This document shows positions 8,529 to 48,112 of a stretch of 48,301 nt of DNA, piece after piece. The stretch comes from Escherichia phage vB_ EcoD_Phleasolo: the sequence record OL539447.1; one strand, 5' to 3'. Positions within the stretch are counted from its first letter, which is position 1. The number at the start of each line of letters is the position of its first letter. The position numbers were made by a program, and so were the translations under genes. The notes below the pieces were generated by a model that saw nothing but the letters and a program-made list of their open reading frames with translations, did no database searches and had not been told where the DNA came from.

Positions 8529-8556
8529 TTGTCCCAATCGAAATCTCGTGTATAAT
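8529..8556 (+). promoter_or_regulatory. sigma70-like promoter with extended -10 (TTGTCC-N16-TG-TATAAT)
   Basis: Hexamers read directly from sequence upstream of the capsid gene. Confidence 0.45.
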
Positions 8557-8594
8557 TGACACGTAAACTCATAAACAAAAGGATGCATCTTAAT

Positions 8595-9542
8595 ATGACT
8601 ATCAAACTTGACGCTTTCGAGCAAGAAAAGATTACTAACCACCTGCGCGCTATGGGTGTTGATAAGGCTGATGCGGCTGGTATCTGGACTGTTAAGCAGC
8701 TCACCGCAAGCCTGAATAAAGCTTACGAAACCGAGTACGACCAGAACTCCGTAGTAAATCTGTTCCCTGTAAGTAATGAAATCCCTGGCTACGCTAAATA
8801 TTTTGAGTATCCGGTATTTGATGGCGTAGGTATTGCTCAGATCGTAGCTGATTACACTGATGACCTGCCGCTGGTTGATGCCTTGGCAACTGAACGTCAG
8901 GGTAAAGTTTTCCGCTTCGGTAACGCTTTCCTGATTTCCATTGATGAAATTAAAGTTGGTCAAGCTACCGGTCAGTCTCTGTCTACTCGCAAGCAGTCTC
9001 TTGCTTTCGAAGCTCACGACAAGCTTCTTGATAAACTGGTGTGGTCCGGCTCTACTGCTCACGGCATCCCTAGCGTTTTCGACTACCCGAACATCAACAA
9101 CGTTGTTAGCGCTGGCTCATGGTCTCAGCCAACTACTGCGGTAAGTGATATTACAAGTCTCTTGGATATTATCGAGACTTCAACCAATGGTCAGCACCGT
9201 GCGACTCACCTGCTTCTGCCTACTACCGCTCGTCGTATCATGCAGAACCTGGTACCTGGCACTTCTGTTAGCTACGGTGAATTCTTCCGTCAGAACAATA
9301 GCGGCGTAACAGTTGAGTTCGTTCAGTACCTGAATGATTACAATGGTTCTGGCACCTCTGCAGCTATCGCTTATGAGAAAGACCCTAACAACATGGCAAT
9401 CGAGATTCCGGAAGCGACTAACGCACTGCCGGCTCAGCCGCGCGACTTGCACTTCCGTGTTCCGGTAACTTCTAAAGCAACTGGCTTGATCGTGTATCGT
9501 CCTTTGACCATGGCTGTAATGAAAGGCATCACCTTCGCGTAA
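8595..9542 (+). CDS. major capsid protein
   Basis: 315 aa from the ATG at 8595 (ORF track opens at 8556); strong promoter upstream and strong terminator downstream, central in the head module; start choice uncertain. Confidence 0.6.
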   Translation: MTIKLDAFEQEKITNHLRAMGVDKADAAGIWTVKQLTASLNKAYETEYDQNSVVNLFPVSNEIPGYAKYFEYPVFDGVGIAQIVADYTDDLPLVDALATERQGKVFRFGNAFLISIDEIKVGQATGQSLSTRKQSLAFEAHDKLLDKLVWSGSTAHGIPSVFDYPNINNVVSAGSWSQPTTAVSDITSLLDIIETSTNGQHRATHLLLPTTARRIMQNLVPGTSVSYGEFFRQNNSGVTVEFVQYLNDYNGSGTSAAIAYEKDPNNMAIEIPEATNALPAQPRDLHFRVPVTSKATGLIVYRPLTMAVMKGITFA

Positions 9543-12870: not shown

Positions 12871-12894
12871 CCTCCCTTTGTGGAGGTTTTTTTA
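12870..12894 (+). terminator. rho-independent terminator (possibly partial)
   Basis: ACCTCC-CTTTGT-GGAGGT hairpin plus T run, directly before the tape measure start. Confidence 0.5.
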
Positions 12895-12904
12895 TGGAGG
12901 TTAC

Positions 12905-15883
12905 ATGGCAGAATTTGCAGGTATCACTCTTGGCGTTGACGTTCGCCAGGTTGACCAGGGCACAAAGTCCCTGCAAGAATTTAAACGTGCCAATGAGCAG
13001 GCTGCGGCTGGTGTTAGCGAATTTGTTAACGCTGAGCTAGTTGCGAAGAATCAGGCTCGCGATACTGCCAGATATCTTTCTGAGCAGCGAACTGCTTTCC
13101 GTCAGCTGCAAACCGCAATCGACCCAACGGCAGGAAAACTTCGCAAACTACAGGAAGCGGCTGACGCACTGGATAAATCCTTCTCCGCAGGAGTTGTTCC
13201 TGAGGCTGAATTCTACCGCTTAAGCGAGGCTCTTGAGACTCAGACTAACAGGCTTCGCAACTCACAGCGCGCATTGACTGAGGAAGGCAGGGCGGCAATT
13301 GAGGCATCAAAAGCCAAGGCTCAGGCAGCTACACAGGCGGAAAGATTCCTTAAGTCTTTGCAGGCTGAAGCTCAGGCGGCAACATTAACGCGAGAGGAGC
13401 TGTTAAAGCTCAGGGCTGCTGAGTTAGGAGTCTCAAGCCAGGCTGCGCCAATTATTGCACAAATCGGAGCAGCAGCTGACCAGTCCGCAGCGGCATTAAC
13501 AAGGCAGAGCCAGGCTTTGCAACGTTCCGGGCTATCTGTTGGCGCATATAAGAACGCAATACGCACACTTCCGGCGCAGATTACAGATATTGGAACCTCA
13601 TTGGCTGGCGGCATTCCAATCTGGTTAATTGCAATTCAGCAGGGTGGCCAGATTAAGGATAGCTTTGGTGGTGTAGCTAACACATTCAGGTTTGCGCTTG
13701 CTGCATTAAACCCGTTCGTTGTTGCAGCTGGAGCTCTCGGTGTTGCTCTTGGTGCTCTTGGGCTATCAGCTTATCAGGCTTATCAGAACACATCACAGCT
13801 AAACCAGACGCTTACCCTGACCGGGCAATCAGCGAACTTATCAGCTGCAGCGGTTCAGAACCTAGCAAGGAATGCTGCTGAAGCTGCCGGAGCTACTCAG
13901 GGTTTAGGCCAGGAAATTGCTAATGGATTGGTCGCAAGTGGAAACCGCACGGTAGCTCAGATTTCAATTATCACTGAGGCAACTGCGCGCTGGGCTACGG
14001 TTACTGGTGATTCAGCTGACGATATCGTCAAGAACTTCGATAAAATCGCAAATGACCCGGTCAAAGGGCTGGCTGAGCTTGATAAGCAGTTTAATTTCTT
14101 AACCGCTGGTCAACTTAAGTACATCGAGCAGATTAGGGTTACAGAGGGTCAAACTCAAGCTGTAACGGCCGCCACGAAAATATTTGCTGATGTGATGGAG
14201 AATCGCTTAACCAAAGTTGCAGAGTCGCTAACGCCGCTTGAGAGGGCTTGGGATAGCTTCAAAAACTTCGTTTCTCGGGTTTGGACAGATATCGGGAACA
14301 GAACGCTTGGCGCGCTAAACCTAATTGTAGACGTTGTTGCTGGCACTATTGAGCAGATTCAGTTTCTGATTGGTCAGGGTGACGTTCTTATCAACAACTT
14401 CCTGATATCGACAATCAAAGCATTCCAGAATATCCCTGGCGCTGATGGAGTTGGTAGTGAGTTGGTTCAGCAATTTGAGAAGCAAAACGAAGGGATAAAG
14501 AAAGCTAACGAGGAGTTAGTTAAGTCAGTAGCTGAGCGTGACGCAAGGATTCGTAAGGGTGAGCTTGGTTATGTCACCTCAACTCAGGAGGAGCAGCAAA
14601 GGAATGGAGAATCTGACGCTGAGTTCGAGAAACGCAGAAAGTCACGTGAGCAGGAACTTAAAGATATTGAGGCAGCGAATAAGGCAAGGAAGACTGGAGT
14701 TAAGGACCAGCAAGACCTTACTATCAACTATGAGTCAGGCGTCTTAGCTCTACAGGCTCAGCTTAAGGTTCTTCAGGAACACCGCCAGATTAGTGATGTC
14801 ATCAGTAACGAGCGAAAGCAGCTGTTCGCAGAAGAAGCAAGGTTTGCAATCCTTAATGAAAGGCTGGCTGATGGCACTATCACCAAACAGCAAAGGGCGT
14901 TACTGCTACAGCAAGATAAAATCTTAGGACTGGCTCGTGAGAAAGCTGAGATTGGTGACCAGATTGTTCTGCAGGAAAGGGCCAATAAACTCCTTGATGA
15001 TAACATCAAGAAGACTCGCCAGATTAACGCTGAAGCAGTATCAATAAGTGTTGGCGCTGGATTATCTCAGCGCGAAGCTGAAAGGAAGCGAGAGTTGGCG
15101 GCGCTAGAAGCCCAGCAGATTTCTAAAGGCGGCTCCGTAGATGACACTGACTTCCAAGCATTGTTGCAGGCTCGTCAGAATTTCTACAATCAGGAAGACG
15201 CATTACGTGGCAACTGGTTGGCTGGTGTTAAGTCTGCGTTTGCTGAGACGGCTGATGAATTAGCAAACTTCAATCAGATTGGTTCTGAATTGGCAATGAG
15301 TGCCTTCAATGGATTGACTGACCAGATTACAAACCTGGTTACTACCGGAGAGGCAAACTTTAAAGAGTTTACCGCTTCAATTCTGAAGCAGATTGCACGC
15401 ATTGCAACGCAATTACTTTTGATTAAAGCTATTGAGTCAACCATATCTAGTTTTGGTGGTGGCGGCGGCTCAACAGGTACAGCTATAGCTAACTTTGGTA
15501 AATCTTTTGGCTTTGCATCTGGTGGCTACACAGGTAGTGGTGGTAAGTACGAGCCAGCTGGCACGGTGCATAAAGGTGAATTCGTATTTACTAAAGAGGC
15601 AACCTCAAGGATTGGCGTTGATAACCTTTACAAGTTGATGCGCGGATACGCAAACGGTGGGGTGGTTGGCTCTGGTCCTGGCTATGCGACTGGTGGACTT
15701 GTTGGTGGAAGCAACGTTAACGTTGGTGGAGTGAATGTTACCGTTCAGACAGGTCTTGGCGGTGGTGGCGGCAATGACGCTAAACAGTTAGAATCTGGTA
15801 TCAGGGTTATCATCGCGGAAGAGATTACTCAATCTTTCCAGCAGGGCGGAACGGCTTACCAGTTCTTGCGTGGTTACAGTTAA
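12905..15883 (+). CDS. tail tape measure protein
   Basis: 992 aa from ATG 12905 (track start 12878 is a TTG inside the terminator); long coiled-coil region, hydrophobic segments and Gly-rich C-terminus. Confidence 0.85.
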   Translation: MAEFAGITLGVDVRQVDQGTKSLQEFKRANEQAAAGVSEFVNAELVAKNQARDTARYLSEQRTAFRQLQTAIDPTAGKLRKLQEAADALDKSFSAGVVPEAEFYRLSEALETQTNRLRNSQRALTEEGRAAIEASKAKAQAATQAERFLKSLQAEAQAATLTREELLKLRAAELGVSSQAAPIIAQIGAAADQSAAALTRQSQALQRSGLSVGAYKNAIRTLPAQITDIGTSLAGGIPIWLIAIQQGGQIKDSFGGVANTFRFALAALNPFVVAAGALGVALGALGLSAYQAYQNTSQLNQTLTLTGQSANLSAAAVQNLARNAAEAAGATQGLGQEIANGLVASGNRTVAQISIITEATARWATVTGDSADDIVKNFDKIANDPVKGLAELDKQFNFLTAGQLKYIEQIRVTEGQTQAVTAATKIFADVMENRLTKVAESLTPLERAWDSFKNFVSRVWTDIGNRTLGALNLIVDVVAGTIEQIQFLIGQGDVLINNFLISTIKAFQNIPGADGVGSELVQQFEKQNEGIKKANEELVKSVAERDARIRKGELGYVTSTQEEQQRNGESDAEFEKRRKSREQELKDIEAANKARKTGVKDQQDLTINYESGVLALQAQLKVLQEHRQISDVISNERKQLFAEEARFAILNERLADGTITKQQRALLLQQDKILGLAREKAEIGDQIVLQERANKLLDDNIKKTRQINAEAVSISVGAGLSQREAERKRELAALEAQQISKGGSVDDTDFQALLQARQNFYNQEDALRGNWLAGVKSAFAETADELANFNQIGSELAMSAFNGLTDQITNLVTTGEANFKEFTASILKQIARIATQLLLIKAIESTISSFGGGGGSTGTAIANFGKSFGFASGGYTGSGGKYEPAGTVHKGEFVFTKEATSRIGVDNLYKLMRGYANGGVVGSGPGYATGGLVGGSNVNVGGVNVTVQTGLGGGGGNDAKQLESGIRVIIAEEITQSFQQGGTAYQFLRGYS

Positions 15884-18503: not shown

Positions 18504-21500
18504 ATGGCACAAATGGTTAAACAAACAACGAGGTTATATGATATGGCCGATTTGCCAAAGATTTATGGAAGCAAGGGTGGTGGCAAGAAGCCACACACAC
18601 CTGTGGAGCAAGAAGATAACCTGGTTTCACTAAACAAGATTAAGGTGCTGCTGGCCGTTGCTGATGGTGAGGTTGATTCTAGCTTCTCACTTAAGGATGT
18701 TTACCTTGCTGACGTTCCAGTGCAGAACCAGGACAACTCATTCAACTATGAAGGTGTAACCGCTGAGTTTCGCCCAGGCACTCAATCTCAAGATTACATC
18801 GCCGGGCTAGACGGTGAGGCATCAGAGATTCAGGTTAGTCGTGAGATTAACAATGATACACCTTACATCATCGCAGTTAACAACAGTCAGCTTTCAGCAA
18901 TCCGAGTCAAGCTGTTCTGGCCTCGACTCGTTAAGCAAGAAGAGAATGGAGATTTAAATGGCACAACATGTGAATATGCAATCGATTTATCAGTTAATGG
19001 CTCAGCGTACACTGAATATACCAGAGGCGTGGCTAACGGTAAAACTACAACAGGTTACGACCGCAGTATCAGGGTTAACTTACCAGCCGAGTTTAGCAGC
19101 GCTCTTGTTCGTATTAGGAAGTTAACGCCAGACTCAACAAGCAGCACACTGGTTAACGGAATGCAGATTACAACCTATCAGGAAGTAATCGACGCTAAGT
19201 TCCGCTACCCTCTTACAGCGCTTGTTTACGTTGAGTTCAGCTCCGACCTATTCCCCAATGGCATCCCAACGATAGCTATTAAGAAAAAGTGGAAGCTTAT
19301 CCGCGTACCGACAAACTACAATCCAGAGACAAGGACTTATAGCGGCACATGGGATGGTACCTTTAAGATGGCGTGGTCTGACAACCCGGCCTGGGTTTTA
19401 TATGACCTTGTGGTTAGTCAGCGTTACGGATTAGATCAGCGAGAACTTGGTGTAGAGATTGATAAATGGGGTCTGTATGAAGCTGCGCAATTCTGTGACC
19501 AGATGGTTCCTGATGGTAAGGGTGGAATGGAGCCGCGATATACTTGCAACGTTGTAATTCAGCAGAAGGTTGAAGCATACCAGCTTATTCGTGACATCTG
19601 TTCTATATTCCGCGGTTTAACCTTCTATGATGGTGAGCAAATCGGGATTGTTGTAGACAGGCCGCGCCAGCCAAGTTACGTGTTCACCAATGATAACGTT
19701 GTTGATGGATTGTTTAACAGGACATTCTCTAGCGATAAGTCTCTTTACACGACTGCAAACGTTCAGTTTGATGACGTAGAGAATAACTATCAGCAAGATG
19801 TTGAACCAGTGTTCGACCTTGAAGCAACTCGCCGCTTTGGTTATAACCCTGTAGACCTGACCGCAATTGGATGCGTAAGGCGTAGTGAAGCTAACCGTCG
19901 AGGTCGCTGGTTGCTGAAAACAAACCTTCGAAGTGAAACGGTAACGTTCACAACTGGCCTCGAAGGGATGATTCCTATGATTGGTGATGTAATTGCTGTC
20001 AATGACCAGGCTTGGTCAAGCAACTACACATTGAACCTTTCGGGTCGAATCGTTGAGGCTACTGGTCTGCAGGTTTTTGTTCCTTTCGCTATTGATGCGG
20101 ACCCAGGCGACAGGATTTTAATCAACAAGCCCGATGGAAGCCCGGAGTACAGGACTATCGCTTCAGTATCTGCAGATAAGCTTACGCTTGAACTGAACAC
20201 AGCATTCAGTTTCACGCCGCAGCCGGATACGGTATTCGCAATCGATAAGCAGAATCTGGCGTTGCAGCAGTATGTGGTGACCGGGATTCAAAAAGCTAAC
20301 ACGGATGGAGAGGACTCATTCCAGTACAGCATCACAGCTGTTCAGTATGATCCTAACAAGTACGATGAGATTGACTACGGAGTAAACATCGATGACAGGC
20401 CAACAAGCATCGTTGACCCTGACAGGATTTTGCCACCGCAGAACATCACCGTTACTAGCTACAGCAAGGTAGTGCAGGGCTTAAGCGTTGAGACGATGGT
20501 TATTGGTTACGACAAAGTGCAGTATGCGAAAACATACAACGTACAATGGCGTAAGAATAACGGAAACTGGATTAACGTTCCTGAGACGGCTAACACTGAA
20601 GTTGATATTGAAGGTATCTACGCTGGCATTTACGACGTCAGGGTTCGTGCTGTAACTGACCAAAAATCAGTATCGGCATGGTCAGAAATCACAACTGTTA
20701 GCCTCACTGGCAAAATTGGAGAACCATCTGCGCCGCCTGTAATTACGGCTTCTGATGATGAGGTTTTCGGAATTAGGGTTAAGTGGGGCTTCCCTACTGA
20801 CTCAGCGGATACTGCGTACACCGAGCTTCAGCAGGTTCCTGATAATGGTGACGGTACATACAATCCAGAGAATGCATCACTGCTTACCCTGGTTCCTTAT
20901 CCTCAGTACGAATACTGGCACACAACTTTACCAGCAGGTAACGTGAGGTGGTACAGGGCGAGGATTATTGACAGGATAGGTAACGTATCTCCATGGACTG
21001 ATTTTGTCAGGGGTATGGCATCTGATGATGTAAGTGCAATCATTGGCGACATCAAGGTTGATATCGAAAACTCTGATGGTTACAAGTATCTTCTCCAGAA
21101 CGCCATTGATGCAAATACTGACATCCAGAACCAGGCCGAAGCAATAATTGAGAACGCATTAGCAAACGATACTGACGTGCGCGTTATGAAGCGCGAGAAT
21201 GGAGCAAGGAAGGCTGAATATCGCCAGGCTGTTAGTTTGATTGCTGATGAAACTCAGGCGCGTGTAAATGCTCTCACAGAACTTAAAGCGCAGATTGATG
21301 ATGAGATTGTTGGTCAGATTACGACAATTGAAACTGCTTTAGCTACAGAGACCGAGGCAAGGGCTACTGCTGATACCGCTCTAAGCGCAAGGCTTGGTGA
21401 TAACGAGGCGGCTTTGAATCAGAAGCTTGACTCTTACGCCACGGTCGAAGGCGTTGGTGTTCAGTACGGCGTTAAGCTAGGTCTGAAGTACAATGGAGTT

Positions 21501-21899
21501 GAGTATGGCGCTGGCATGAGCATGGAGTTAACTGGTAGTGGTGGAAATGTTCGCAGTCAGTTCATTTTCGACGCCAACAGATTTGCAATCAGTAACGGCA
21601 TTAGTTCTGGTTCCGGTCAGTGGTCACTGCCTTTTGTTGTCGATAATAACCAGGTTTTCATTCAAAGCGCTGTGATACAGGACGGTTCAATCACTAACGC
21701 GAAGATTGGAGACGCAATTCAGTCTAACAACTTTGTAGCAAACTCTGTTGGCTGGAGGCTTGATAAGGCTGGAACTTTCGAAAATAACGGTTCTACGCCT
21801 GGCGAGGGTAAAATGAAGCAAACTAACCAGACAATTTCGGTTGCTGATGCTAACGGAAGGCTTCGTGTTCAGATTGGCCGTTTGACTGGAGTTTACTAA
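18504..21899 (+). CDS. central tail fibre / host specificity protein (lambda J-like)
   Basis: 1131 aa, largest structural gene, last of the M-L-K-I-J block. Confidence 0.8.
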   Translation: MAQMVKQTTRLYDMADLPKIYGSKGGGKKPHTPVEQEDNLVSLNKIKVLLAVADGEVDSSFSLKDVYLADVPVQNQDNSFNYEGVTAEFRPGTQSQDYIAGLDGEASEIQVSREINNDTPYIIAVNNSQLSAIRVKLFWPRLVKQEENGDLNGTTCEYAIDLSVNGSAYTEYTRGVANGKTTTGYDRSIRVNLPAEFSSALVRIRKLTPDSTSSTLVNGMQITTYQEVIDAKFRYPLTALVYVEFSSDLFPNGIPTIAIKKKWKLIRVPTNYNPETRTYSGTWDGTFKMAWSDNPAWVLYDLVVSQRYGLDQRELGVEIDKWGLYEAAQFCDQMVPDGKGGMEPRYTCNVVIQQKVEAYQLIRDICSIFRGLTFYDGEQIGIVVDRPRQPSYVFTNDNVVDGLFNRTFSSDKSLYTTANVQFDDVENNYQQDVEPVFDLEATRRFGYNPVDLTAIGCVRRSEANRRGRWLLKTNLRSETVTFTTGLEGMIPMIGDVIAVNDQAWSSNYTLNLSGRIVEATGLQVFVPFAIDADPGDRILINKPDGSPEYRTIASVSADKLTLELNTAFSFTPQPDTVFAIDKQNLALQQYVVTGIQKANTDGEDSFQYSITAVQYDPNKYDEIDYGVNIDDRPTSIVDPDRILPPQNITVTSYSKVVQGLSVETMVIGYDKVQYAKTYNVQWRKNNGNWINVPETANTEVDIEGIYAGIYDVRVRAVTDQKSVSAWSEITTVSLTGKIGEPSAPPVITASDDEVFGIRVKWGFPTDSADTAYTELQQVPDNGDGTYNPENASLLTLVPYPQYEYWHTTLPAGNVRWYRARIIDRIGNVSPWTDFVRGMASDDVSAIIGDIKVDIENSDGYKYLLQNAIDANTDIQNQAEAIIENALANDTDVRVMKRENGARKAEYRQAVSLIADETQARVNALTELKAQIDDEIVGQITTIETALATETEARATADTALSARLGDNEAALNQKLDSYATVEGVGVQYGVKLGLKYNGVEYGAGMSMELTGSGGNVRSQFIFDANRFAISNGISSGSGQWSLPFVVDNNQVFIQSAVIQDGSITNAKIGDAIQSNNFVANSVGWRLDKAGTFENNGSTPGEGKMKQTNQTISVADANGRLRVQIGRLTGVY

Positions 21900-21946
21900 C
21901 TGATAGAATGGGCAAATGGAATTGCCCTTATCAACAGGAGGAATTT

Positions 21947-22255
21947 ATGGCTGAGTATGGGATTGCTACATATGATGCAAATGGTAATTACAATAACTAT
22001 GGGATTAAGCCAGTTACGGTTGTTGGCTTTGATTTCCTTTCCGCTGGCAATAATTCTTACTCGTTTTCTTACTCAATACCAGAAGGCACAAAGGTTGGAT
22101 TCACTATTAGTCTGGATGATGGGGCGATATCTGGACCAGCAAGGAGAATAGTGGCAAGTGGGAACACAATAACGATAACACCAACATCAACACCAGGACC
22201 TGGTGTTTACCCATCATCAAATTGCTACCTCATAGCTTATCTGGAGAATCAATAA
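21947..22255 (+). CDS. hypothetical protein (paralog A, downstream of the J-like gene)
   Basis: Start at the ATG after AGGAGG; N-terminus MAEYGIATYDANGNYNNYG resembles the next gene's MADYGAFIDVNGNPF. Confidence 0.4.
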   Translation: MAEYGIATYDANGNYNNYGIKPVTVVGFDFLSAGNNSYSFSYSIPEGTKVGFTISLDDGAISGPARRIVASGNTITITPTSTPGPGVYPSSNCYLIAYLENQ

Positions 22256-22947
22256 TGGCTGATTACGGAGCTTTTATAGATGTAAATGGAAATCCATTCA
22301 TAACGCCACTATCAACACCATTCGCACTTTACTCAAAAGGAACAATCGCATCAGGTAATGTTAACAACACCCAGTATGCTGATAGATATGTTGACATTCC
22401 TCTCAATGTTCCAGTGATAGCTTTTTGCAAAACGACAAACACAAACAATGGTACAGCTTTGTCAGCATTCACATTTAGGGAGGGATCCAACATTGGAAAG
22501 ATCTACTTTCAGGGTGTTAATCCAGCAAATCAGGCGTTTGTTATGACGTACTACATATTTGCGATATTCCCACAGACTCTACCTGATTGGGGTATGGCTA
22601 TATGGGATGCGCAGGGTAAATTGATACTTACAAATGAAACAAAGGTTCTTAGCGACCTAGCAACAATTGGCACGCCAGGTTATCAATCTGGTGGTTTAAA
22701 TATAGACGTAACATTGCAAGGAAGTTGGGCCGTGGTTCCAACAACCCTGGGGAATAGTCAGATACAAATAGGAACGCTACCAACTGGTCAGCCAGTTATA
22801 ACAAATGCGACAGCTGGAACATCCTGCAGGTACAACGGAGTGCAGACAAGAATAAACGCGCAGTCAACACGTGGCTCTGGAAATGTGTTAAGCACAACAA
22901 ATAACGGAAATGTAATAACAGCAATTAACACATCAGCATACGACTAA
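22255..22947 (+). CDS. hypothetical protein (paralog B, possible distal tail/receptor-related)
   Basis: 230 aa from ATG 22255 (TAATG overlap with the previous gene); Thr/Asn/Gly-rich. Confidence 0.4.
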   Translation: MADYGAFIDVNGNPFITPLSTPFALYSKGTIASGNVNNTQYADRYVDIPLNVPVIAFCKTTNTNNGTALSAFTFREGSNIGKIYFQGVNPANQAFVMTYYIFAIFPQTLPDWGMAIWDAQGKLILTNETKVLSDLATIGTPGYQSGGLNIDVTLQGSWAVVPTTLGNSQIQIGTLPTGQPVITNATAGTSCRYNGVQTRINAQSTRGSGNVLSTTNNGNVITAINTSAYD

Positions 22948-24794: not shown

Positions 24795-25754
24795 ATGAGC
24801 TTCAAGGTTTACACTAACGATGAGTTAACCAACGAAGCCTACCATGAGGAGTCTGACCATGTGTCTGGCTCTGGTCTGGCTCACATCTTCTCAACTTGCC
24901 CAGCCGCATACAAATACGCTGAGCATGATGATAGCAGTAAAGCGTTAAAGTTCGGTACATTGGCTCACACGATGGTTTTGGAGAGCTCTGTATTTGATGC
25001 GACATACTATCGTCAGCCAGCGCAGGAAGAGTTTGAAGACCTGATTACCAGTAAGGCTGCATTAGCAGCAAGACTGAAAGCGATGGGAATTGCTGGAACT
25101 TCTGGAAAGGATTACCCTGAATTAATGGAGATACTGGCACTGACTGGTGAATCACTCAACGTATGGTGGGATATCCAGCGCTCTAGCGAGATTAAAGCAG
25201 AAGGCCGCGAGATTGTATCAGCTAAGGACTTTGACACCGTACAGGCGATGCGAGAGGTTTTGTGTGGAATTCCTGCTTACAATGCAATAGTTAACAGTGA
25301 AACCGCTCAGCGTGAACTATCAATTTTCGGTGAGATTAACGATTGTGGAGTGAAGGTAAGACTGGACCATGTTGATGTAGTTGGTGATGTTGTTTATATC
25401 CGAGATTACAAAACAACTAGCGACGCTTCTCCGTCAGGTTTCGGTCGCCTCGCCTTTAAGCATGGTTACTTGTTAAAGATGGCACTTCAACATGACTTAT
25501 TTGTGCGAGCCTTTAATGAAAAGAGGCGAGTTGTTGTTCAGCTATTGGCGCAGGAAAAAAAGAGCCCGTACCTACCAATGTGCTACACGATAACAAAAGA
25601 ACAGTTAAGGGTTGGTAGGTTGCAATACATGAGTGCGCTTTCTACATACAAGCATTGTAAGAAGCTTGATATCTGGCCTGGGTATGGGTTCGGTGAAACA
25701 GAGATGGAATTGCAGATACCTGAATATGAGATGAAGAAATATGAATTGGCATGA
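24795..25754 (+). CDS. PD-(D/E)XK-type recombination exonuclease
   Basis: D...VYIRDYKT motif typical of the nuclease superfamily core; sits with Erf and SSB. Confidence 0.55.
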   Translation: MSFKVYTNDELTNEAYHEESDHVSGSGLAHIFSTCPAAYKYAEHDDSSKALKFGTLAHTMVLESSVFDATYYRQPAQEEFEDLITSKAALAARLKAMGIAGTSGKDYPELMEILALTGESLNVWWDIQRSSEIKAEGREIVSAKDFDTVQAMREVLCGIPAYNAIVNSETAQRELSIFGEINDCGVKVRLDHVDVVGDVVYIRDYKTTSDASPSGFGRLAFKHGYLLKMALQHDLFVRAFNEKRRVVVQLLAQEKKSPYLPMCYTITKEQLRVGRLQYMSALSTYKHCKKLDIWPGYGFGETEMELQIPEYEMKKYELA

Positions 25755-26196
25755 TATTTTTGAGTATATAGATGGATGCATAATATGGCGTGCTAGTGGT
25801 AATGTTGCTGGTTACAAACGAAAGGATGGTTATGTGATTGTGACAATAAATGGTAAGAAAATACTAGCGCATCGGATAATATACGAAATGAATAACGGAG
25901 ATATAGAGCCAGGTATGCAAATTGACCATATTGACCACAATCCATCAAACAACAGGATTGAAAACCTTAGGGTGGTTAACCACCAGGAGAACCAATCCAA
26001 TAAGTCAAAGCAGTCAAATAACACTTCAGGGGTTACTGGCGTTTGGCTACATAAGAAATCTGGAAGGTTTGTAGCTGAAATAATGGTTGAAAAGAAGAAG
26101 ATACATATAGGCTACTTTGATGACAAGCTGAATGCGGCAAAGGCTAGAAAGGATGCTGAAATTAAGTTTGGGTTTCATAAAAATCATGGAAAATAG
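25741..26196 (+). CDS. HNH homing endonuclease with AP2 DNA-binding domain
   Basis: HRIIYEMNNG...IDHIDHNPSNNRIENLRVVNHQEN (HNH) followed by GVTGVWLHKKSGRFVAEI...YFDDKLNAAKARKDAE (AP2-like). Confidence 0.8.
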   Translation: MNWHDIFEYIDGCIIWRASGNVAGYKRKDGYVIVTINGKKILAHRIIYEMNNGDIEPGMQIDHIDHNPSNNRIENLRVVNHQENQSNKSKQSNNTSGVTGVWLHKKSGRFVAEIMVEKKKIHIGYFDDKLNAAKARKDAEIKFGFHKNHGK

Positions 26197-27398: not shown

Positions 27399-27422
27399 AA
27401 GCCCCTTTCGGGGCTTTTTTTA
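27399..27422. terminator. bidirectional terminator
   Basis: AGCCCC-TTTC-GGGGCT hairpin flanked by an A run and a T7 run; between convergent ssb and tail fibre genes. Confidence 0.7.
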
Positions 27423-30032
27423 TATTGCTCTAACCTGCCACCTTTTATCATAAAAGTGAGCAAATCCACTATATGTTAATTTAAGGTGGCAAAGGAATGT
27501 GCTTACCGATGCAGTTGGTGTTAAAATCCTCAGGAATGTCTGACCACCAGTCACGTACTTAGTAATAGAAACCCCATCAAGAGAAGTGCTTTTTGAGCCA
27601 GTCGACTTAGCTATCTTGTTATACCAAGGTATTCCTGATGAGACATTGGCCTTAGTGCTTCCAGATAAGCTAAATTGAATAATACCTCCTGATTCCTGAC
27701 CGCCTAATCCATTCTTATTAATTGGTATAAGGCTCAACTCTCCAGCAATAAATGTTGACCCATACCTGGACTCCTCACCAACTGTAGTAAGAAGGATATC
27801 AAGCGCCCTGTTATAAGGCAGCAATAAAGTAGCATCCTCAGTTCTGACCTGATTGAAGTCCATTCCACTAGTAACATGAACAGCAGATAACGTAGTTCCG
27901 TTATATGAGTTCCTTGCTTCAACTGGTGACTCGCCATATGTCACGTTGCCAACTTTAGTGCTCCTCAACGTGCTCTTTGAGAATGAACCAGTGTATTGAC
28001 TGTTAATAATCCTGAAGTCATCACCAAAATGAACAGAGTTACCTTCTGCAGTTGGGTTTGAAATGGTGTTTTCCATAATCATCAAGGCGTAATCAGACTT
28101 GAAATAACCATCGCTAAAACGTATCGATCCAACTGGCATTCTACTTTCATTAGCTGGCAATTTTATCATCCTAAGGACTCCAGTGTTCATGCTTGATTGA
28201 ATCCAGCAAGAAAACCCCTTTACATCAAATCCAAACTGATCGTCATCACCACCATAGTCGGAGAAATCAAATACAGTATCTCCATTAACACCCTCAACCC
28301 CAGCACCTACGATATTAACAGACCTTAACTGGCCACCAATCTTGTGTGGAGTTAAGCAACCATCAGCAGCTATGTTTGTCGCAGTGACATACATAACAGG
28401 AAAACCACCAGCTACAGGCTCCAGGGTTGTTGTGTTAATGCCGTAACCCCAAAGAAAGCCAACATCACAGTGGTGTGCCCATACAGAATCAAGGGCGGTA
28501 CTTGTATTACCTGAAAGTCCAATGCCGTATGTGCAATCGTACATGTATACATTTGAAATTTTAGAAACAAATGTCAGTGTTGATAATGCATACTTGTAAT
28601 GATAAAACTCAACGTTATCTATTGTGTACTGCTTGCCGCCACCACCTTGACCTGAGTCATTTCCGCTAATTAGAGGTGAGCCGTTATAATCAGCATCTGC
28701 GTTCCTGAAGCCAATGTTTTTAACAAACATATTGTGACCCCAAGGCGAAACAATGAAGCCACCATTGCCAGATGTGTAAATCAAACACCTCCTAGGAGTT
28801 GCTGTACCTTCAATCCTAATTGTCTGTCCTGAGAACCTCTCACCAGATACGTTGACCCTTGTTGTGCCAATGTAGATAGGCCTATCAATGAGAATCTTCT
28901 TGTTTAATTTGATTGATGCTGTGTAGCACTTCTGCATAGCAACGCCATCGTTAGACACGCCAGTCAAATCAGCGGCGCCCATGCTTGGTGCTTTTGGATA
29001 TGGCGTACCTTGGATTGTATTTCCATCAATATATGGCGCGTTCATCAGAGCACCAAACATCATTGGTGACAAGCCTTCAATCAATGAAAGATCTCGCTTC
29101 CATCTGTGGTTTCCGGTAGTGACAATAACAACACCATCATCATCTGTGCTGGTTGAATCATTGGCATCGTAATAGAACCAGCCACCGCCAAGCATGCTAG
29201 TCCCTGAGTGACTAGATACATAAACCCGCTCACCGTCACGAAGTGGCACCAAGCCCCTCAAAATAGATAAGTTATCAACATTACGATCAGCAAATGACAA
29301 AGGCACCCATCCAGAAGATGAAACCCCTCCAGTTGACTCAGGGGTTGAGTTAGCCGGGACGGTTTTAGGAAGCGCGCCCGCCCAAATGTAAGGGACAGCA
29401 ATACCAGATGAAATGTCAATTACCTGTTGAGTTGCTGATTGAATAGTTACGCCAGACTGAAATGAGCCAATGAGAGCACCAGAAACTGACTGAGCTGCTG
29501 ACTCAGCACTTTGAGCAGAGGATGCTGCGTTAGATGCACTTAAACCCGCTGCATCCCTCGCCGCCTCAGCTTGAGATAATGAGGACTGAACATCTGCCTT
29601 ATCTGCCGATACTTGCAAGGCATCACTGGCAACCTGCTGAGACTGGTTGTTTACGTTTGTGACATTTTGCTGGAATGCATCAGCATCAAACTGATTAAAA
29701 GCATCAACAGCTGCTGCGACTTCAGTCTCATTTGACTGATAGTAACGCAAGGTTTCAGCAACATCCTGAGCAAGTCCCTGAACAGTAATCCCGTCGTGAG
29801 CAAGAATTGAGTACTGAGTACCAGTCGGAGCGGTAAATCCCTTGTCGTTAAAAACTCGAATTTCGGTATCACTGATTATTTCAGCAATGGTAACAATACT
29901 TGCTGGCGTGGTATTGAAAATCATTGTTGCGCCAACTCGAATTAGAGTTAACGGCTGCCTCCAGGTAGTACCAACACCAGTTACAGTTCCGTCAGCTGCA
30001 AGCGATGCTGTTCCCGCGTCATAAATTGCCAT
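27420..30032 (-). CDS. tail fibre / tailspike protein (possible beta-helix depolymerase domain)
   Basis: 870 aa; Ala/Ser/Gln-rich shaft segment (SQAEAARDAAGLSASNAASSAQSAESAAQS) followed by a large Gly/Asn/Thr-rich domain. Confidence 0.6.
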   Translation of the reverse strand: MAIYDAGTASLAADGTVTGVGTTWRQPLTLIRVGATMIFNTTPASIVTIAEIISDTEIRVFNDKGFTAPTGTQYSILAHDGITVQGLAQDVAETLRYYQSNETEVAAAVDAFNQFDADAFQQNVTNVNNQSQQVASDALQVSADKADVQSSLSQAEAARDAAGLSASNAASSAQSAESAAQSVSGALIGSFQSGVTIQSATQQVIDISSGIAVPYIWAGALPKTVPANSTPESTGGVSSSGWVPLSFADRNVDNLSILRGLVPLRDGERVYVSSHSGTSMLGGGWFYYDANDSTSTDDDGVVIVTTGNHRWKRDLSLIEGLSPMMFGALMNAPYIDGNTIQGTPYPKAPSMGAADLTGVSNDGVAMQKCYTASIKLNKKILIDRPIYIGTTRVNVSGERFSGQTIRIEGTATPRRCLIYTSGNGGFIVSPWGHNMFVKNIGFRNADADYNGSPLISGNDSGQGGGGKQYTIDNVEFYHYKYALSTLTFVSKISNVYMYDCTYGIGLSGNTSTALDSVWAHHCDVGFLWGYGINTTTLEPVAGGFPVMYVTATNIAADGCLTPHKIGGQLRSVNIVGAGVEGVNGDTVFDFSDYGGDDDQFGFDVKGFSCWIQSSMNTGVLRMIKLPANESRMPVGSIRFSDGYFKSDYALMIMENTISNPTAEGNSVHFGDDFRIINSQYTGSFSKSTLRSTKVGNVTYGESPVEARNSYNGTTLSAVHVTSGMDFNQVRTEDATLLLPYNRALDILLTTVGEESRYGSTFIAGELSLIPINKNGLGGQESGGIIQFSLSGSTKANVSSGIPWYNKIAKSTGSKSTSLDGVSITKYVTGGQTFLRILTPTASVSTFLCHLKLTYSGFAHFYDKRWQVRAI

Positions 30033-34940: not shown

Positions 34941-35285
34941 TTGATAGAAAGCAATTCTCAAAAGCTCAAATTAACGCATGGATTGCAACGCAGTTTAATA
35001 ACTCAGAACATTGGATTAAAGCAATCGAACAGCTTAGGTGTGCTTATGATACTAAAAACCGGAAGGGCTGAGGTCTGGAAGCACTGCGGAGAGGCTGGAC
35101 TACAGGATGATATCAAGATAATAAGTAAGTACTTTGACATTGATGATATCTCTGTAGTTTATGATGGAAAATTCAGCTATATGAACCAGCGCCCTCGAAA
35201 GTATGTAAGAGTTCCGGCAACCCCAAGCCTTGCGATGTATCGCGAGGAAGGTAAGAAGATATTTAAGAAAGGTGCTAAGAAATGA
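34941..35285 (+). CDS. hypothetical protein (start uncertain)
   Basis: Track ORF opens with TTG; likely starts at the ATG at 35046 after AGGTG; an alternative 45-aa ORF (34934-35071) overlaps in another frame. Confidence 0.3.
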   Translation: MIESNSQKLKLTHGLQRSLITQNIGLKQSNSLGVLMILKTGRAEVWKHCGEAGLQDDIKIISKYFDIDDISVVYDGKFSYMNQRPRKYVRVPATPSLAMYREEGKKIFKKGAKK

Positions 35286-44289: not shown

Positions 44290-44766
44290 ATGCGTAAGGT
44301 ACTGATGATATGCGTCTATGTTGCCATATTCTTATTGGCAAACCTCCTGGTAGCCTCATTTGGTCCAGCGGTAACTCCATTTAACGCACTTTTTCTTATA
44401 GCGGCAGACATGGTATTAAGGGACAGGATTCAGTTTGAGAGCGGTGCGGCATGGTCAATACTAGCATGCTTCCTTGCCGGATTTGCGACTGTATTAATAG
44501 CGCCAGGTTCAGAGATGATTGCTTTAGCATCTGGCCTATCATGCTTACTTGCTGGATCAGCTTCAGCGATTGCATTCAAATTAAAGTCTGGTGGATTTTT
44601 TCAGAAGGCGTTGCCAGCAAACGTAATTGCTGCTGCGGTAGATTCAATTGCATTCCCATTAATTGCTTTCGGGTCTATAATGCCAGGCATAACAGCAGCC
44701 CAGTTTGCCGCTAAAACTATTGGCGCATCAATCATACTATTAATCATAAGGAAATTATCTAAGTGA
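44290..44766 (+). CDS. small polytopic inner-membrane protein (possible precursor transporter; family unverified)
   Basis: 158 aa with 4-5 hydrophobic helices; RBS GGAGG; stop overlaps the next gene's GTG start (GTGA). Confidence 0.4.
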   Translation: MRKVLMICVYVAIFLLANLLVASFGPAVTPFNALFLIAADMVLRDRIQFESGAAWSILACFLAGFATVLIAPGSEMIALASGLSCLLAGSASAIAFKLKSGGFFQKALPANVIAAAVDSIAFPLIAFGSIMPGITAAQFAAKTIGASIILLIIRKLSK

Positions 44767-45593
44767 CAATTCACTTCCATGGCTCCCCTATAACGGGGGG
44801 CAAGGGCGATGCACTTGCTCGGACCGCGTATACAAATGGCGGTGCTTTCGTGTCATTCGCCCACCCGCAGCAGATAGAATTGGCGTTTAAGGTAGCGAAT
44901 GCAGTATGCATAGATAATGGTGCGTTCTCTAAGAAGAATAGCGGCAAAGCTACTGACTGGCATAAATTCTATAATGACTTTTTACCCAGATTTATCGACA
45001 GAGAAAAGTTACGATTCTTTGTTATACCTGATGATATCAGCGGGTGCGACAAAGAGAACGACAGATTAATAAGCGAACTTCCATTACACCTAAAGCACAA
45101 AGGAGCTCCAGTCTGGCATATGCATGAGAGCTTAGACAGGCTAGTCCACCTTGCCAACGAGTGGGAATACATGTGTATAGGCTCGTCAGGCGAGTACTAC
45201 TCTATCCGTTCAGAGAAATGGAAGCGGCGCATGAATGATGCCTTTAACGCTCTAATTCAGAGGGGCTACTCAGCAAAAATTCACGGCCTCAGAATGCTGG
45301 ATGGTCGAGTTCTTGGCAACTACCCACTGGATCAGGCTGACTCAACAAACCTGGCTATTAATGCGCCTAAGTGGATATGCAAATATATAGATATGACCAT
45401 TGAGGCGTGCCGAGCTCAGACTCACAGAGACGCATGGATTTCAACCTCAGATCCGAAGTTTGCACTTGAGCAATTAATCGCAGACGGCGGCACAAGGGAG
45501 CAGATGCTGGCACAGAGATGCGCGATACTCAGGAATTGCATAGAAGCAGTAAGGCCACCATCAAGGGATTCATGGAATAGCACGAATTGCTAA
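44763..45593 (+). CDS. hypothetical enzyme (possible TGT/DpdA-like base-exchange enzyme)
   Basis: 276 aa; VCIDNGAFS resembles the TGT substrate-pocket motif (TDSGGFQ); no CxCxxC zinc site seen; coupled to the upstream membrane protein. Confidence 0.3.
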   Translation: MTIHFHGSPITGGKGDALARTAYTNGGAFVSFAHPQQIELAFKVANAVCIDNGAFSKKNSGKATDWHKFYNDFLPRFIDREKLRFFVIPDDISGCDKENDRLISELPLHLKHKGAPVWHMHESLDRLVHLANEWEYMCIGSSGEYYSIRSEKWKRRMNDAFNALIQRGYSAKIHGLRMLDGRVLGNYPLDQADSTNLAINAPKWICKYIDMTIEACRAQTHRDAWISTSDPKFALEQLIADGGTREQMLAQRCAILRNCIEAVRPPSRDSWNSTNC

Positions 45594-47418: not shown

Positions 47419-47675
47419 CTGAACTATCAATATGGTTCCTGGCTGGCATGCTGACTTGGATTTATTTCGTGGTCATGGCTTGACTCAAATGTTTAATATG
47501 GTTAGTATTAAACACGTAGACGGCAATGACCGTAACGCGCATCGCGGAGATGAAAGCCGATAGCCGGGCTGGATAAAGATACGAGGCAACTACCGCATCG
47601 CCAAAAGCAAAGTGTAAGTCGGACTTGCGGAGCATTGTGAAAGCTCGCCGGATTCCGTAACCGGCACCTATTCAA

Positions 47676-47751
47676 GTTCTGTTAGTGTAAGTGGACAGCA
47701 CGAAGACCTCCTAAGTCTTAGGTACTGGTTCAAGTCCAGTGCGGAACGCCA
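47676..47751 (+). tRNA. tRNA-Arg (anticodon CCT)
   Basis: Hand-folded cloverleaf: acceptor GTTCTGT/GCGGAAC (two G-U pairs), D stem GTGT/GCAC with GG loop, anticodon stem AAGAC/GTCTT with loop CT-CCT-AA, T arm ACTGG-TTCAAGT-CCAGT, encoded CCA. Confidence 0.7.
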
Positions 47752-47756
47752 AATAT

Positions 47757-47858
47757 GCTCACGTTGCTAATGTTGGCCTAAGGGTGGAGCTTATACCTCC
47801 ATAAAGCAATCACCAGATAAGTGATGTAACGCAGGTTCGATTCCTGCCGTGAGCACCA
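47757..47858 (+). tRNA. tRNA-like element, non-canonical length (identity unresolved)
   Basis: Canonical T arm GCAGG-TTCGATT-CCTGC, 3' CGTGAGC-A-CCA and a perfect complementary GCTCACG 102 nt upstream; two internal 5-bp hairpins; no clean D arm. Confidence 0.3.
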
Positions 47859-47874
47859 ATCATGGAGCATCCTA

Positions 47875-48060
47875 GTGAATAACTACGAAGTCCGTTTAAC
47901 TTCCCGCCTAATGGGCAGGCAATGCAAATCTTGCCAGCAATCCTACGAAGGTAGGTTCCCTGCTAACAGCCCTGAAGAAGCAGTTGCAGCCGCAAAGGCA
48001 GCATTTAAGATTGACCTGACGGTTCACAAAGTCAGCGTTGATAAAGTATCCCTCGTTTGA
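47875..48060 (+). CDS. hypothetical protein
   Basis: 61-aa ORF with GGAG RBS; contains CxxC; followed by a terminator. Confidence 0.4.
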   Translation: MNNYEVRLTSRLMGRQCKSCQQSYEGRFPANSPEEAVAAAKAAFKIDLTVHKVSVDKVSLV

Positions 48061-48088: not shown

Positions 48089-48112
48089 GCCCTCCTCGTG
48101 AGGGCTTTTTTT
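48089..48112 (+). terminator. rho-independent terminator
   Basis: GCCCTC-CTCGT-GAGGGC hairpin plus T7 run. Confidence 0.65.

Follow-up and report, generated by a model that had tools for sequence, protein, structure and literature searches.

To our knowledge, AUA is the only sense codon that bacteria read solely through a dedicated wobble modification (lysidine) or a coevolved isoleucyl-tRNA synthetase (IleRS). In the former case the decoder is tRNA-Ile2, whose CAU anticodon receives lysidine from TilS, and Shiga toxin (Stx) phages carry ileZ-argN-argO. Prophages of L. curvatus carry tRNA-Ile(CAU) for AUA decoding (PMC10688831). A tRNA-Ile with a UAU anticodon is used by E. coli IleRS at 1.1% of the kcat/Km of the lysidine (LAU) form, with N6-threonylcarbamoyladenosine at position 37 (t6A37) important for isoleucylation, and M. 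mobile has changed its IleRS to use UAU (PMC3575796). The 48,301-bp stretch analyzed here (the window) is the complete genome of the T1-like siphophage Escherichia phage vB_EcoD_Phleasolo (record OL539447.1), and close to its end lies a 102-nt element in which two hairpins with isoleucine-type anticodon loops, UAU in arm 1 and GAU in arm 2, share one tRNA body. The reading that we tentatively prefer, at somewhat below an even chance, is that this two-arm RNA is an AUA-decoding tRNA-Ile(UAU) whose isoleucine identity would be supplied by arm 2 and read through a switch of D-stem register.

The two-arm RNA shares with bacterial and phage tRNA-Ile1(GAU) A73, a D stem of G10-C25, C11-G24 and U12-A23, A26, the 7/5 architecture, G18-G19 and a normal T loop, and the loop of arm 2 is the E. 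coli loop CUGAUAA except at position 33. It differs in having A33 in all members, a 33-nt module with the UAU loop inside the would-be D loop, a length of 97 to 105 nt, and an essentially phage-only distribution. With tRNA-Ile2 it has in common the presumed task, that of an AUA decoder often found with rare-codon Arg tRNAs, but it has UAU, with no C34 and no TilS dependence, and its identity would come from the second arm and not from a modified wobble base. Anticodon-arm mimicry is known outside tRNA, in the thrS mRNA operator bound by ThrRS and in viral tRNA-like structures. The concept is the same, a stem-loop that copies the cognate anticodon loop and recruits the synthetase (touched on in PMC9976931), but here the mimic would sit in a tRNA and serve the charging of the same molecule. 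There is a realistic chance that, the molecule itself being a tRNA, the mechanism is new in kind.

The tRNA-Ile(UAU) of the M. mobile type (PMC3575796) likewise has an unmodified-type UAU for AUA and no need of lysidine; its solution, however, is an altered IleRS (Arg865 for Trp) and a single-arm class I tRNA, whereas a phage cannot alter the host enzyme and carries a GAU-type arm instead. In one of its two registers the two-arm RNA has a long variable arm, as do nev-tRNA-Ile(UAU) (PMC3333845) and the allo-tRNAs (PMC5389517), together with UAU and A73. Leu, Ser, Tyr or Sec anticodons and identity are the rule in class II tRNAs, and all members here have UAU (Ile). The nev-tRNAs are nematode nuclear genes whose products are charged with Leu in vitro, while the allo-tRNAs have 8/4 or 9/3 acceptor/T stems, as opposed to 7/5, and Ser identity. 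Unlike the two-arm RNA, neither the allo-tRNAs nor the nev-tRNAs have an anticodon-loop mimic in the extra arm or a duplicated D-stem strand. A full-text literature search, with subscription-only papers outside its reach, found no published description of a two-anticodon-arm tRNA, of a GAU-type extra arm, or of such a phage tRNA-Ile(UAU), and the family is apparently undescribed.

Anatomy, covariation, and distribution of the two-arm RNA

A first-pass annotation, made from the sequence of the window, had described a tRNA-Arg followed at 5 nt by a second, tRNA-like element of 102 nt with a T arm, acceptor strands and CCA, and internal loops CTTATAC and CAGATAA. All of these are present as described (Table 1), and both elements are confirmed as real: the tRNA-Arg is called by both tRNA predictors applied to the region, and the 102-nt element is recognized by Rfam model RF00005 over 47757-47855 at 42.7 bits, against a gathering threshold of 29 (E = 7.5e-6 for the whole window), while ARAGORN miscalls it as a nonsensical "tRNA-???". 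Overlooked were the isoleucine type of the two internal loops, each of which is an anticodon loop for this amino acid, and the place of the element in a large phage-specific family with unvarying loops. Loop 1 (C32-U33-U34-A35-U36-A37-C38) is a canonical anticodon loop with UAU for codon AUA, and loop 2 (C32-A33-G34-A35-U36-A37-A38) differs from the E. coli tRNA-Ile1 loop only in having A for U33. In place of the single anticodon arm of a cloverleaf, the element has two covarying hairpins with anticodon-type 7-nt loops. The extra module (27 to 33 nt) is too short for a group I intron, which takes hundreds of nucleotides, and bacteria lack the bulge-helix-bulge splicing endonuclease.

To examine conservation, alignment A1 (77 sequences, subfamily A) was used together with 47 sequences of subfamily B; counts out of 119 refer to distinct full-length sequences. 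In A1 the acceptor stem, hairpins 1 and 2, and the T stem are paired in 96.4% of their helix cells, and double changes occur at 20 of 26 pairs. None of 500 shuffles reached these values, and partners slid by 1 to 3 columns pair in only about 45% of cells. The 7/5 acceptor/T configuration is kept by compensatory change. Loop 1 is invariant as Y-U-U-A-U-A-N and loop 2 as Y-A-G-A-U-A-A, in each case even when unconstrained in the scan; A33 of arm 2 is found in 119/119. Position 38 of loop 1 is variable, with A in 36, C in 35 and U in 6 sequences of subfamily A, and with C in 42 and A in 3 of the 47 in subfamily B. All 119 sequences have A73, followed by CCA in 117.

The tertiary core is conserved in the same way. 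Columns 16 and 79 of A1 (window G 47772 and C 47830) are A-U in 47 sequences and G-C in the other 30, without exception, which takes approximately 19 concerted switches on a crude tree; in subfamily B, A15-U48 is found in 47/47. Judged from this covariation, 47772-47830 is the Levitt 15-48 tertiary pair, and its combination with U8, A14, G18-G19 and the T loop shows a tRNA-type core. The complete signature of the L shape is found, namely U8, A14, G18-G19, a T loop of UUCGA(N)U, and R15-Y48. By these sequence features the 102-nt RNA is a real tRNA: its acceptor/T-arm domain and its tertiary core are normal, and A73 and CCA are present. The failure of ARAGORN, which gave junk or no calls on the element and on 52 related loci, was discounted as evidence against a tRNA since the Rfam and covariation results are clear.

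A non-translational tRNA-like RNA would be an alternative, acting as a primer or regulatory RNA or as a decoy, sponge or inhibitor directed at a host tRNA-Ile-directed nuclease or other tRNA-targeting defense, at IleRS, or at modification enzymes. A decoy might well have a pair of anticodon-like loops of which one carries, at position 33, a purine that looks non-cleavable; the rejection of the RNA by ARAGORN-type rules would also be in keeping, and phage tRNAs do counter tRNA-targeting defenses. We nevertheless consider this decidedly improbable, as the features for processing, CCA, EF-Tu and the L shape are under strong selection (covariation of the acceptor and T arms, G18-G19, the Levitt pair, the T loop, and A73-CCA), the place of the element in large phage tRNA arrays is that of the AUA decoder, and we know of no tRNA-Ile-specific anticodon nuclease.

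The minimum free energy (MFE) of the element lies below that of all 200 shuffles (z = -2.8). Two helices of the MFE structure were rejected. A GCUA/UGGC mini-hairpin would sequester G18-G19, which are needed for the elbow, and the partner of G10 in it varies (C, U or A); pairing of AGC with the 3' linker as an extension of hairpin 2 involves columns 75 and 76, which are variable.

Using blastn with a 111-nt region as the query, the whole element including both hairpins was found at 75 to 93% identity in unrelated phages: Vibrio phages of the Schitoviridae and Demerecviridae, a Klebsiella phage of the Stephanstirmvirinae, the Xanthomonas jumbo phage Xoo-sp13, Pectobacterium phages of the Autographiviridae and Ounavirinae, and other Drexlerviridae. 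It is present in at least seven unrelated cultured phage groups, always within or beside tRNA clusters. Pattern scans of IMG/VR identified 79 contigs with loop 2 left unconstrained, at least 85 with loop 1 unconstrained, and at least 120 when the two loops and the AGC linker were the sole anchors. In total, the family comprises at least 159 phage loci and 119 distinct full-length sequences of 97 to 105 nt, in two subfamilies (A and B). Only 4 matches to the family pattern were found in 185,579 bacterial and archaeal species genomes, and none to the element in 5,426 E. coli genomes, so that E. coli chromosomes or prophages were rejected as its source. The family is widespread and essentially phage-only. 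Homologues are only sometimes labeled "tRNA-Ile" and are mostly unannotated; as ARAGORN also misses the intact two-arm RNA in 72 of 77 sequences, phage tRNA repertoires and AUA-decoding capacity would be undercounted.

Two possible D-stem registers

Between the D region and the T arm the RNA carries two tandem modules, each made up of a D-stem 3' strand, position 26, a 5-bp stem with its 7-nt loop, and position 44, and the 3' strands of both are able to pair with the single 5' strand G10-C11-U12(-N13). Among the 119 sequences the proximal D stem has a purine-purine mismatch at 10-25 in 116 (G-C once), C-G at 11-24 in 118, and U-A at 12-23 in 110, whereas the distal one, formed with AGC, has G-C, C-G and U-A at these positions in every sequence. 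Position 13-22 covaries between subfamilies in the proximal register, where U13 is found with A22 in 46/47 members of subfamily B and A13 in subfamily A accompanies a position 22 that drifts between A and U; in the distal register it shows no covariation. The proximal D stem of the window has only two Watson-Crick pairs, while that of subfamily B is a canonical D arm except at 10.25. An A26 equivalent follows the distal AGC in 73/77 sequences. The remark of the first-pass annotation that the element has no clean D arm was fair, the best D stem being GCT (47766-68) with AGC (47805-07), which encloses hairpin 1.

In silico deletion of the second module led ARAGORN to call Ile(tat) in 77/77 sequences, and deletion of the first led it to call Ile(gat) in 73/77. 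Single-arm versions of the backbone, with either arm, gave 0 matches each in IMG/VR. As either deletion yields a canonical tRNA and neither product was found there, the two arms would appear to depend on each other. The Rfam model itself flips register within the family: the window copy is aligned with a 33-nt D-loop insertion and the CAGATAA hairpin (GAU) as the anticodon arm, while in subfamily B member L105 and in L084 (52.2 and 50.5 bits) the UAU arm takes that place and hairpin 2 becomes a variable arm of 26 to 27 nt. A long-variable-arm tRNA and a tRNA with an insertion, offered at first as separate options beside a decoy, are hence two registers of one molecule.

The alignments of L105 and L084 are also the form expected of a static class II tRNA-Ile(UAU), in which arm 1 is the anticodon arm, arm 2 a long variable arm, and no switch occurs. 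AGC and the AGAUAA loop would then be engaged in tertiary contacts or would offer IleRS, or some other factor, an additional identity element to bind directly, much as SerRS uses the variable arm of tRNA-Ser. The class II layout, with an extra stem-loop between positions 44 and 48 and the D arm 5' of the anticodon arm, does hold in the proximal register; the proximal D arm of subfamily B is canonical, with its covarying 13-22; and AGC sits just 3' of position 44, where the nucleotides of ordinary tRNAs form triples with the D stem, the constant mismatch at 10.25 leaving G10 free to pair with that C. However, AGC fully complements G10-C11-U12 in 119/119 and is then followed by the A26 equivalent, which is more than a triple needs. 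Arm 2 is flanked on each side by 5 to 6 unpaired nt, unlike known variable arms. It would also be hard for IleRS or TsaD to read a loop off the end of the D/anticodon stack; the contacts of TsaD are with D stem and loop at once. We regard a static class II fold as unlikely, though it has to be given some weight.

Nearest-neighbor energetics were discarded as a discriminator of registers because they are uninformative. Loop-loop kissing between UUAU of loop 1 and AUAA of loop 2 (four A-U pairs) is possible, but such complementarity is automatic for any NAU loop with U33 and A37-A38, and the loops never vary; it was not retained.

Proposed assignment of decoding and identity to the two arms

Arm 1 (UAU) is the favored decoder. 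Of what decoding needs it keeps U33 and a purine at 37, and nothing more, and the cloverleaves with the best scores use it as their anticodon arm; the covariation of proximal 13-22 between subfamilies supports the same assignment. An ordinary tRNA-Ile(GAU) is coresident with the element in at least 10 arrays and an ordinary tRNA-Ile(UAU) in none, so the element would fill the AUA slot, where a second GAU reader would be redundant. In small clusters its recurrent companion is Arg(UCU) or Arg(CCU), both rare-codon tRNAs, which also argues for arm 1. In E. coli, AUA accounts for about 7 to 8% of Ile codons and AGG for about 2% of Arg codons. In the window AUA makes up 17.5% of Ile codons (11 per 1,000) and is concentrated in a few accessory genes of low G+C content (37 to 47%) at 21908-22947, 25741-26196, 34941-35285 and 44290-45593, in some of which it accounts for half or more of the Ile codons: 11/17 in the HNH endonuclease gene (PF13392) at 25741-26196 and 14/20 in the open reading frame (ORF) at 22222-22947.

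Identity points to the other arm. The IleRS determinants are A73, positions 34 to 36, t6A37, U12-A23, C29-G41 and D-loop residues (PMC9976931). Bacterial t6A substrates strictly conserve 36-UAA-38, and TsaD reads G10-C25, C11-G24 and U12-A23 beside A26 (PMC13276492). Arm 2 together with the distal AGC presents the t6A37 signature (36-UAA-38 and the D-stem pairs) in 77/77 sequences and A26 in 73/77, and its invariant G34-A35-U36 matches anticodon identity, whereas UAU in arm 1 makes an approximately 1% substrate of E. coli IleRS and the window loop 1 (CUUAUAC, with C38) lacks 36-UAA-38. Because arm 2 and AGC-A match the IleRS and t6A determinants, and loop 1 often lacks A38, arm 2 would be the identity arm. 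The minor determinants C4-G69 and C29-G41 (arm 2) both occur in the window copy but are not conserved within the family, where 17/77 sequences have C-G at 4-69 and 35/77 have it at 29-41.

In an alternative reading, which the label "tRNA-Ile" on some homologues implies, the GAU arm is the sole true anticodon arm, reading AUU and AUC, and hairpin 1 is inserted into the D loop for some other function (protein-binding site, anticodon-nuclease decoy or stabilizer). Rfam aligns the window copy in this way, GCU/AGC is perfect in all members, the predicted pair probability is 0.19 for the distal GCU/AGC register versus 0.008 for the proximal one, and the signature for Ile identity and t6A is complete in arm 2. 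U33, however, is nearly universal in decoding tRNAs, and arm 2 has A33 in 119/119 while the 11 coresident ordinary tRNA-Ile(GAU) genes have U33 (9) or C33 (2) and never A33. A further GAU reader would duplicate those genes for codons that are not rare; the exact Y32-U33-NNN-A37 and Ile anticodon of loop 1 would be left unexplained; a hairpin of about 19 nt at the elbow should clash with ribosomal elbow contacts; and subfamily B aligns best in the UAU register. We hold a GAU-decoding tRNA to be quite unlikely.

A class II A73 tRNA could instead be charged by LeuRS or by another synthetase that ignores the anticodon, AUA then being read as Leu or another amino acid. LeuRS does not read the anticodon, and A15-U48 is an identity element for E. 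coli LeuRS; this pair, though, is G-C in 30/77 sequences of subfamily A. The long arm, A73 and UAU have a parallel in the nev-tRNAs (PMC3333845). The invariant Ile-type AGAUAA loop, AGC-A and U12-A23 would nonetheless go unexplained, and recoding of AUA would harm the phage's own AUA-rich genes, which makes charging of this kind highly improbable.

For the two-arm tRNA-Ile(UAU) that we prefer, the following sequence of events may be envisaged. Arm 2 would be a copy of the tRNA-Ile(GAU) anticodon arm in which G34, A35, U36, A37 and A38 are kept and U33 is replaced by A33. In the second register AGC would re-pair with G10-C11-U12, giving a standard tRNA-Ile(GAU) body (D stem, A26, 36-UAA-38, A73), and the t6A37 machinery and IleRS would modify the RNA and charge it with isoleucine through arm 2. 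On the ribosome, arm 1 (U33-UAU-A37) would read the rare AUA codon, while arm 2 would lie where a class II tRNA has its variable arm. The weakened proximal and perfect distal D stems may allow alternation between the two cloverleaves, and A33 may keep arm 2 from decoding and perhaps also shield it from anticodon nucleases that cut after pyrimidine 33. A bistable tRNA in the full sense, showing a GAU face to the t6A enzymes and IleRS and a class II-like UAU face to the ribosome, so that identity and decoding are uncoupled, is possible but on the whole doubtful.

Several points weigh against this preferred mechanism. Its weakest is the distal D stem, where GCU/AGC never varies and so yields no proof by covariation, and where 13-22' does not covary either; what suggests this stem is its invariance and its match to the t6A and IleRS signature, nothing else. 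A static class II-like fold, with AGC in tertiary contact with the D stem, is an alternative, and nearest-neighbor energies do not separate the registers (-0.75 +/- 0.9 kcal/mol). A possible 2-bp mini-helix, CC-UAA-GG, with weak coupling of columns 21-27 and 22-26, offers a rival explanation to the proximal D stem for the invariant G 47782. AUA is only moderately enriched in the phage and rare in the major capsid gene (8556-9542; 1/21 Ile codons). On E. coli ribosomes a UAU anticodon without modification reads AUG as well (PMC3575796), which would be a cost, and the D-loop residues reportedly used by IleRS (PMC9976931) are disrupted in the second register by the 33-nt insert. The role of A33 is conjecture. 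What the analysis shows is anatomy, conservation, covariation and the distribution of the family, whereas expression, processing, modification and charging with Ile, the use of arm 1 on the ribosome and the switch between registers are predictions from these.

Columns 21 to 27 (47777-47783) lie between G18-G19 and hairpin 1 and have CC and GG around UAA; pair 21/27 is C-G in 62 sequences, U-A in 3 and U-G in 2, and pair 22/26 is C-G in 62 and U-G in 13.

If the preferred mechanism is correct, the problem of AUA would have a third solution, not seen before, in a tRNA that brings a "handle" for IleRS and t6A on an arm of its own; with it, phages could decode this codon in any host, needing neither TilS and lysidine nor an adapted IleRS. 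We know of no other natural tRNA in which the anticodons read by the synthetase and by the ribosome would lie on different loops, and such a case would bear on the strictness of the link between tRNA identity and the decoding anticodon, on phage escape from codon bias across many hosts, and on the design of orthogonal tRNAs for codon reassignment.

Genomic context and the tRNA transcription unit

The region is best explained as a small rare-codon tRNA operon with a conserved promoter, a leader, tRNA-Arg(CCU) and the two-arm tRNA-Ile (Table 1). GenBank annotation in the region consists of the tRNA-Arg only, with no feature over the 102-nt element.

Table 1. Features of the tRNA region of the window and the evidence for each
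Feature	Position	Strand	Evidence or remark
Sigma70-like promoter motif TTGACT-N17-TAGTAT	47480..47508	+	Consensus scan; positional conservation in relatives
Leader, 167 nt	47509..47675	+	Alignment with relatives; two small hairpins at about 47629-47667
tRNA-Arg, anticodon CCU, G73, encoded CCA	47676..47751	+	ARAGORN; Rfam RF00005, 52 bits
Spacer, tRNA-Arg to 102-nt element, 5 nt	47752..47756	+	
Two-arm tRNA-Ile-like gene, whole, 102 nt	47757..47858	+	Rfam, 42.7 bits; family covariation in all four helices
Acceptor stem 5' strand (GCTCACG; pairs with CGTGAGC, 47848-47854)	47757..47763	+	Double changes in all 7 pairs; 99.8% of cells paired
U8-U9, shared D-stem 5' strand G10-C11-U12(-A13), 5' part of D loop with A14, G18-G19	47764..47776	+	TTGCTAAT..TGG invariant within subfamily A
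Proximal D-stem 3' strand AAGG	47780..47783	+	C11-G24 and U12-A23 pair; G10.G25 and A13.A22 mismatched
Arm 1: G26, stem UGGAG/CUCCA, loop 47790-47796, U44; anticodon UAU 47792-47794	47784..47802	+	Double changes in 5/6 pairs
Distal D-stem 3' strand A23'-G24'-C25' and A26'	47805..47808	+	AGC complements G10-C11-U12 in 119/119; A26' in 73/77
Arm 2: stem AUCAC/GUGAU, loop 47814-47820; A33 47815; GAU 47816-47818	47809..47825	+	Double changes in all 5 pairs
Linker GUAAC, 5 nt, ending at position 48 (C 47830)	47826..47830	+	Y48 covaries perfectly with R at column 16
T arm GCAGG-UUCGAUU-CCUGC	47831..47847	+	Double changes in 3/5 pairs; 99.7% of cells paired; loop invariant within subfamily A
Acceptor 3' strand, A73 (47855), encoded CCA (47856-47858)	47848..47858	+	ACCA in 117/119
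61-aa ORF directly 3' of the element	47875..48060	+	ORF list; hypothetical protein in OL539453; conserved beside tRNA slot in relatives
Intrinsic-terminator-like hairpin and T run	48089..48112	+	Consensus scan

The canonical tRNA-Arg(CCT) of the first-pass annotation was recovered by ARAGORN at exactly the same span. The suggestion that it supplements decoding of AGG fits the codon usage of the window genome (44.7% GC), in which no Arg codon is used as often as AGG (25.6% of all Arg codons; 12 per 1,000). AGG is frequent in the largest structural genes (e.g., 12878-15883, 18504-21899 and 27420-30032), in line with the phage's own tRNA-Arg(CCU).

The sigma70-like motif proposed upstream was found in place and is kept in position and sequence in phiEB49, Sd1, Rogue1 and phiJLA23 in an alignment of Rogunavirinae, though as a bare motif it occurs at chance level (2 found in the region versus 2.4 expected in the consensus scan). 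It is presumed to be the start of the tRNA transcription unit. The leader that follows had been given as 160 nt; its actual length is 167 nt, and its first 77 nt or so (47509-47585) are nearly invariant among Rogunavirinae. The idea that it may hold further structure stood only in part: no Rfam family matched the leader and its MFE is not below that of shuffles (z = +0.48), while three compensatory pairs among four relatives fall across two small hairpins, and the leader was rejected as a structured RNA. These hairpins, immediately 5' of the tRNA-Arg at 47629-47667, are GGAGC-AUUGUGAAA-GCUCG and CCGG-AUUCCGUAA-CCGG, and Rogue1 and phiJLA23 preserve both by compensatory changes (GAGG/CCUC and CCGC/GCGG). 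Downstream, the 61-aa ORF, for which no Pfam match was found, probably shares the tRNA transcript, and the terminator-like hairpin is the likely end of the unit.

Compared with Rogue1, phiJLA23 and Sd1, the element is a precise insertion of approximately 107 nt between "...GGAACRCCAA" of the tRNA-Arg and "CATGGAGCATCC", the latter being the ribosome-binding site and start of the conserved 61-aa ORF. This slot is empty in Rogue1 and phiJLA23, holds a tRNA-Val in phiEB49, and holds the two-arm tRNA in Opt-79, PCEc3, CEB_EC3a, BEK6, ESCO41 and ETEP102; it is therefore a tRNA cassette hotspot, located upstream of the small terminase gene. PCEc3-like phages combine Arg(UCU) with the two-arm tRNA, and Sd1 has a tRNA-Trp upstream of the Arg gene. 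In phiJLA23 the tRNA-Arg sequence is present with no tRNA annotated.

Over 47450-47900 the window shows 100% identity with three phages of the Rogunavirinae (Drexlerviridae), namely Klebsiella phage vB_KpnD_Opt-79, Escherichia phage Opt-719 and phage Sadiya. The same or nearly the same phages (48,301 to 48,303 bp) are filed under different hosts, Klebsiella for Opt-79, E. coli for Opt-719 and Serratia for Sadiya (records OL539453, OL539451, OL539467, PQ314493 and PP134917), and "Pseudomonas phage PsgS01F" matches the element as Escherichia phage PCEc3 does, both being 44,679 bp. The host labels of these records may be unreliable.

Other unusual tRNAs were observed in element-bearing arrays. 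The two tRNA-Ile(GAU) genes with C33 (L004:327-402 and L050:14383-14457, minus strand) are otherwise ordinary, with the loop CCGAUAA. Three tRNAs are unusually long for anticodons outside class II, Arg(UCU) of 95 nt (L058:4577-4671, minus strand), Pro(UGG) of 98 nt (L050:12993-13090, minus strand) and Arg(CCU) of 99 nt (L014:3645-3743, minus strand). They were rejected as a generalized two-arm design, since folds of Arg(UCU) and Pro(UGG) show plain long variable arms with no anticodon mimic. In an Actinobacillus-associated provirus (L023:3445-3520 and L097:7487-7562), the tRNA directly beside the two-arm tRNA has an 8-nt anticodon loop, CUUCUAAG, and is called "tRNA-???" with a 4-base anticodon by ARAGORN; it may have arisen from Arg(UCU) by expansion of the loop. 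Several large element-bearing arrays on IMG/VR contigs (L046, L050, L052, L059, L064 and L088) also contain tmRNA genes, some of them permuted, with tags such as ANDETFALAA.

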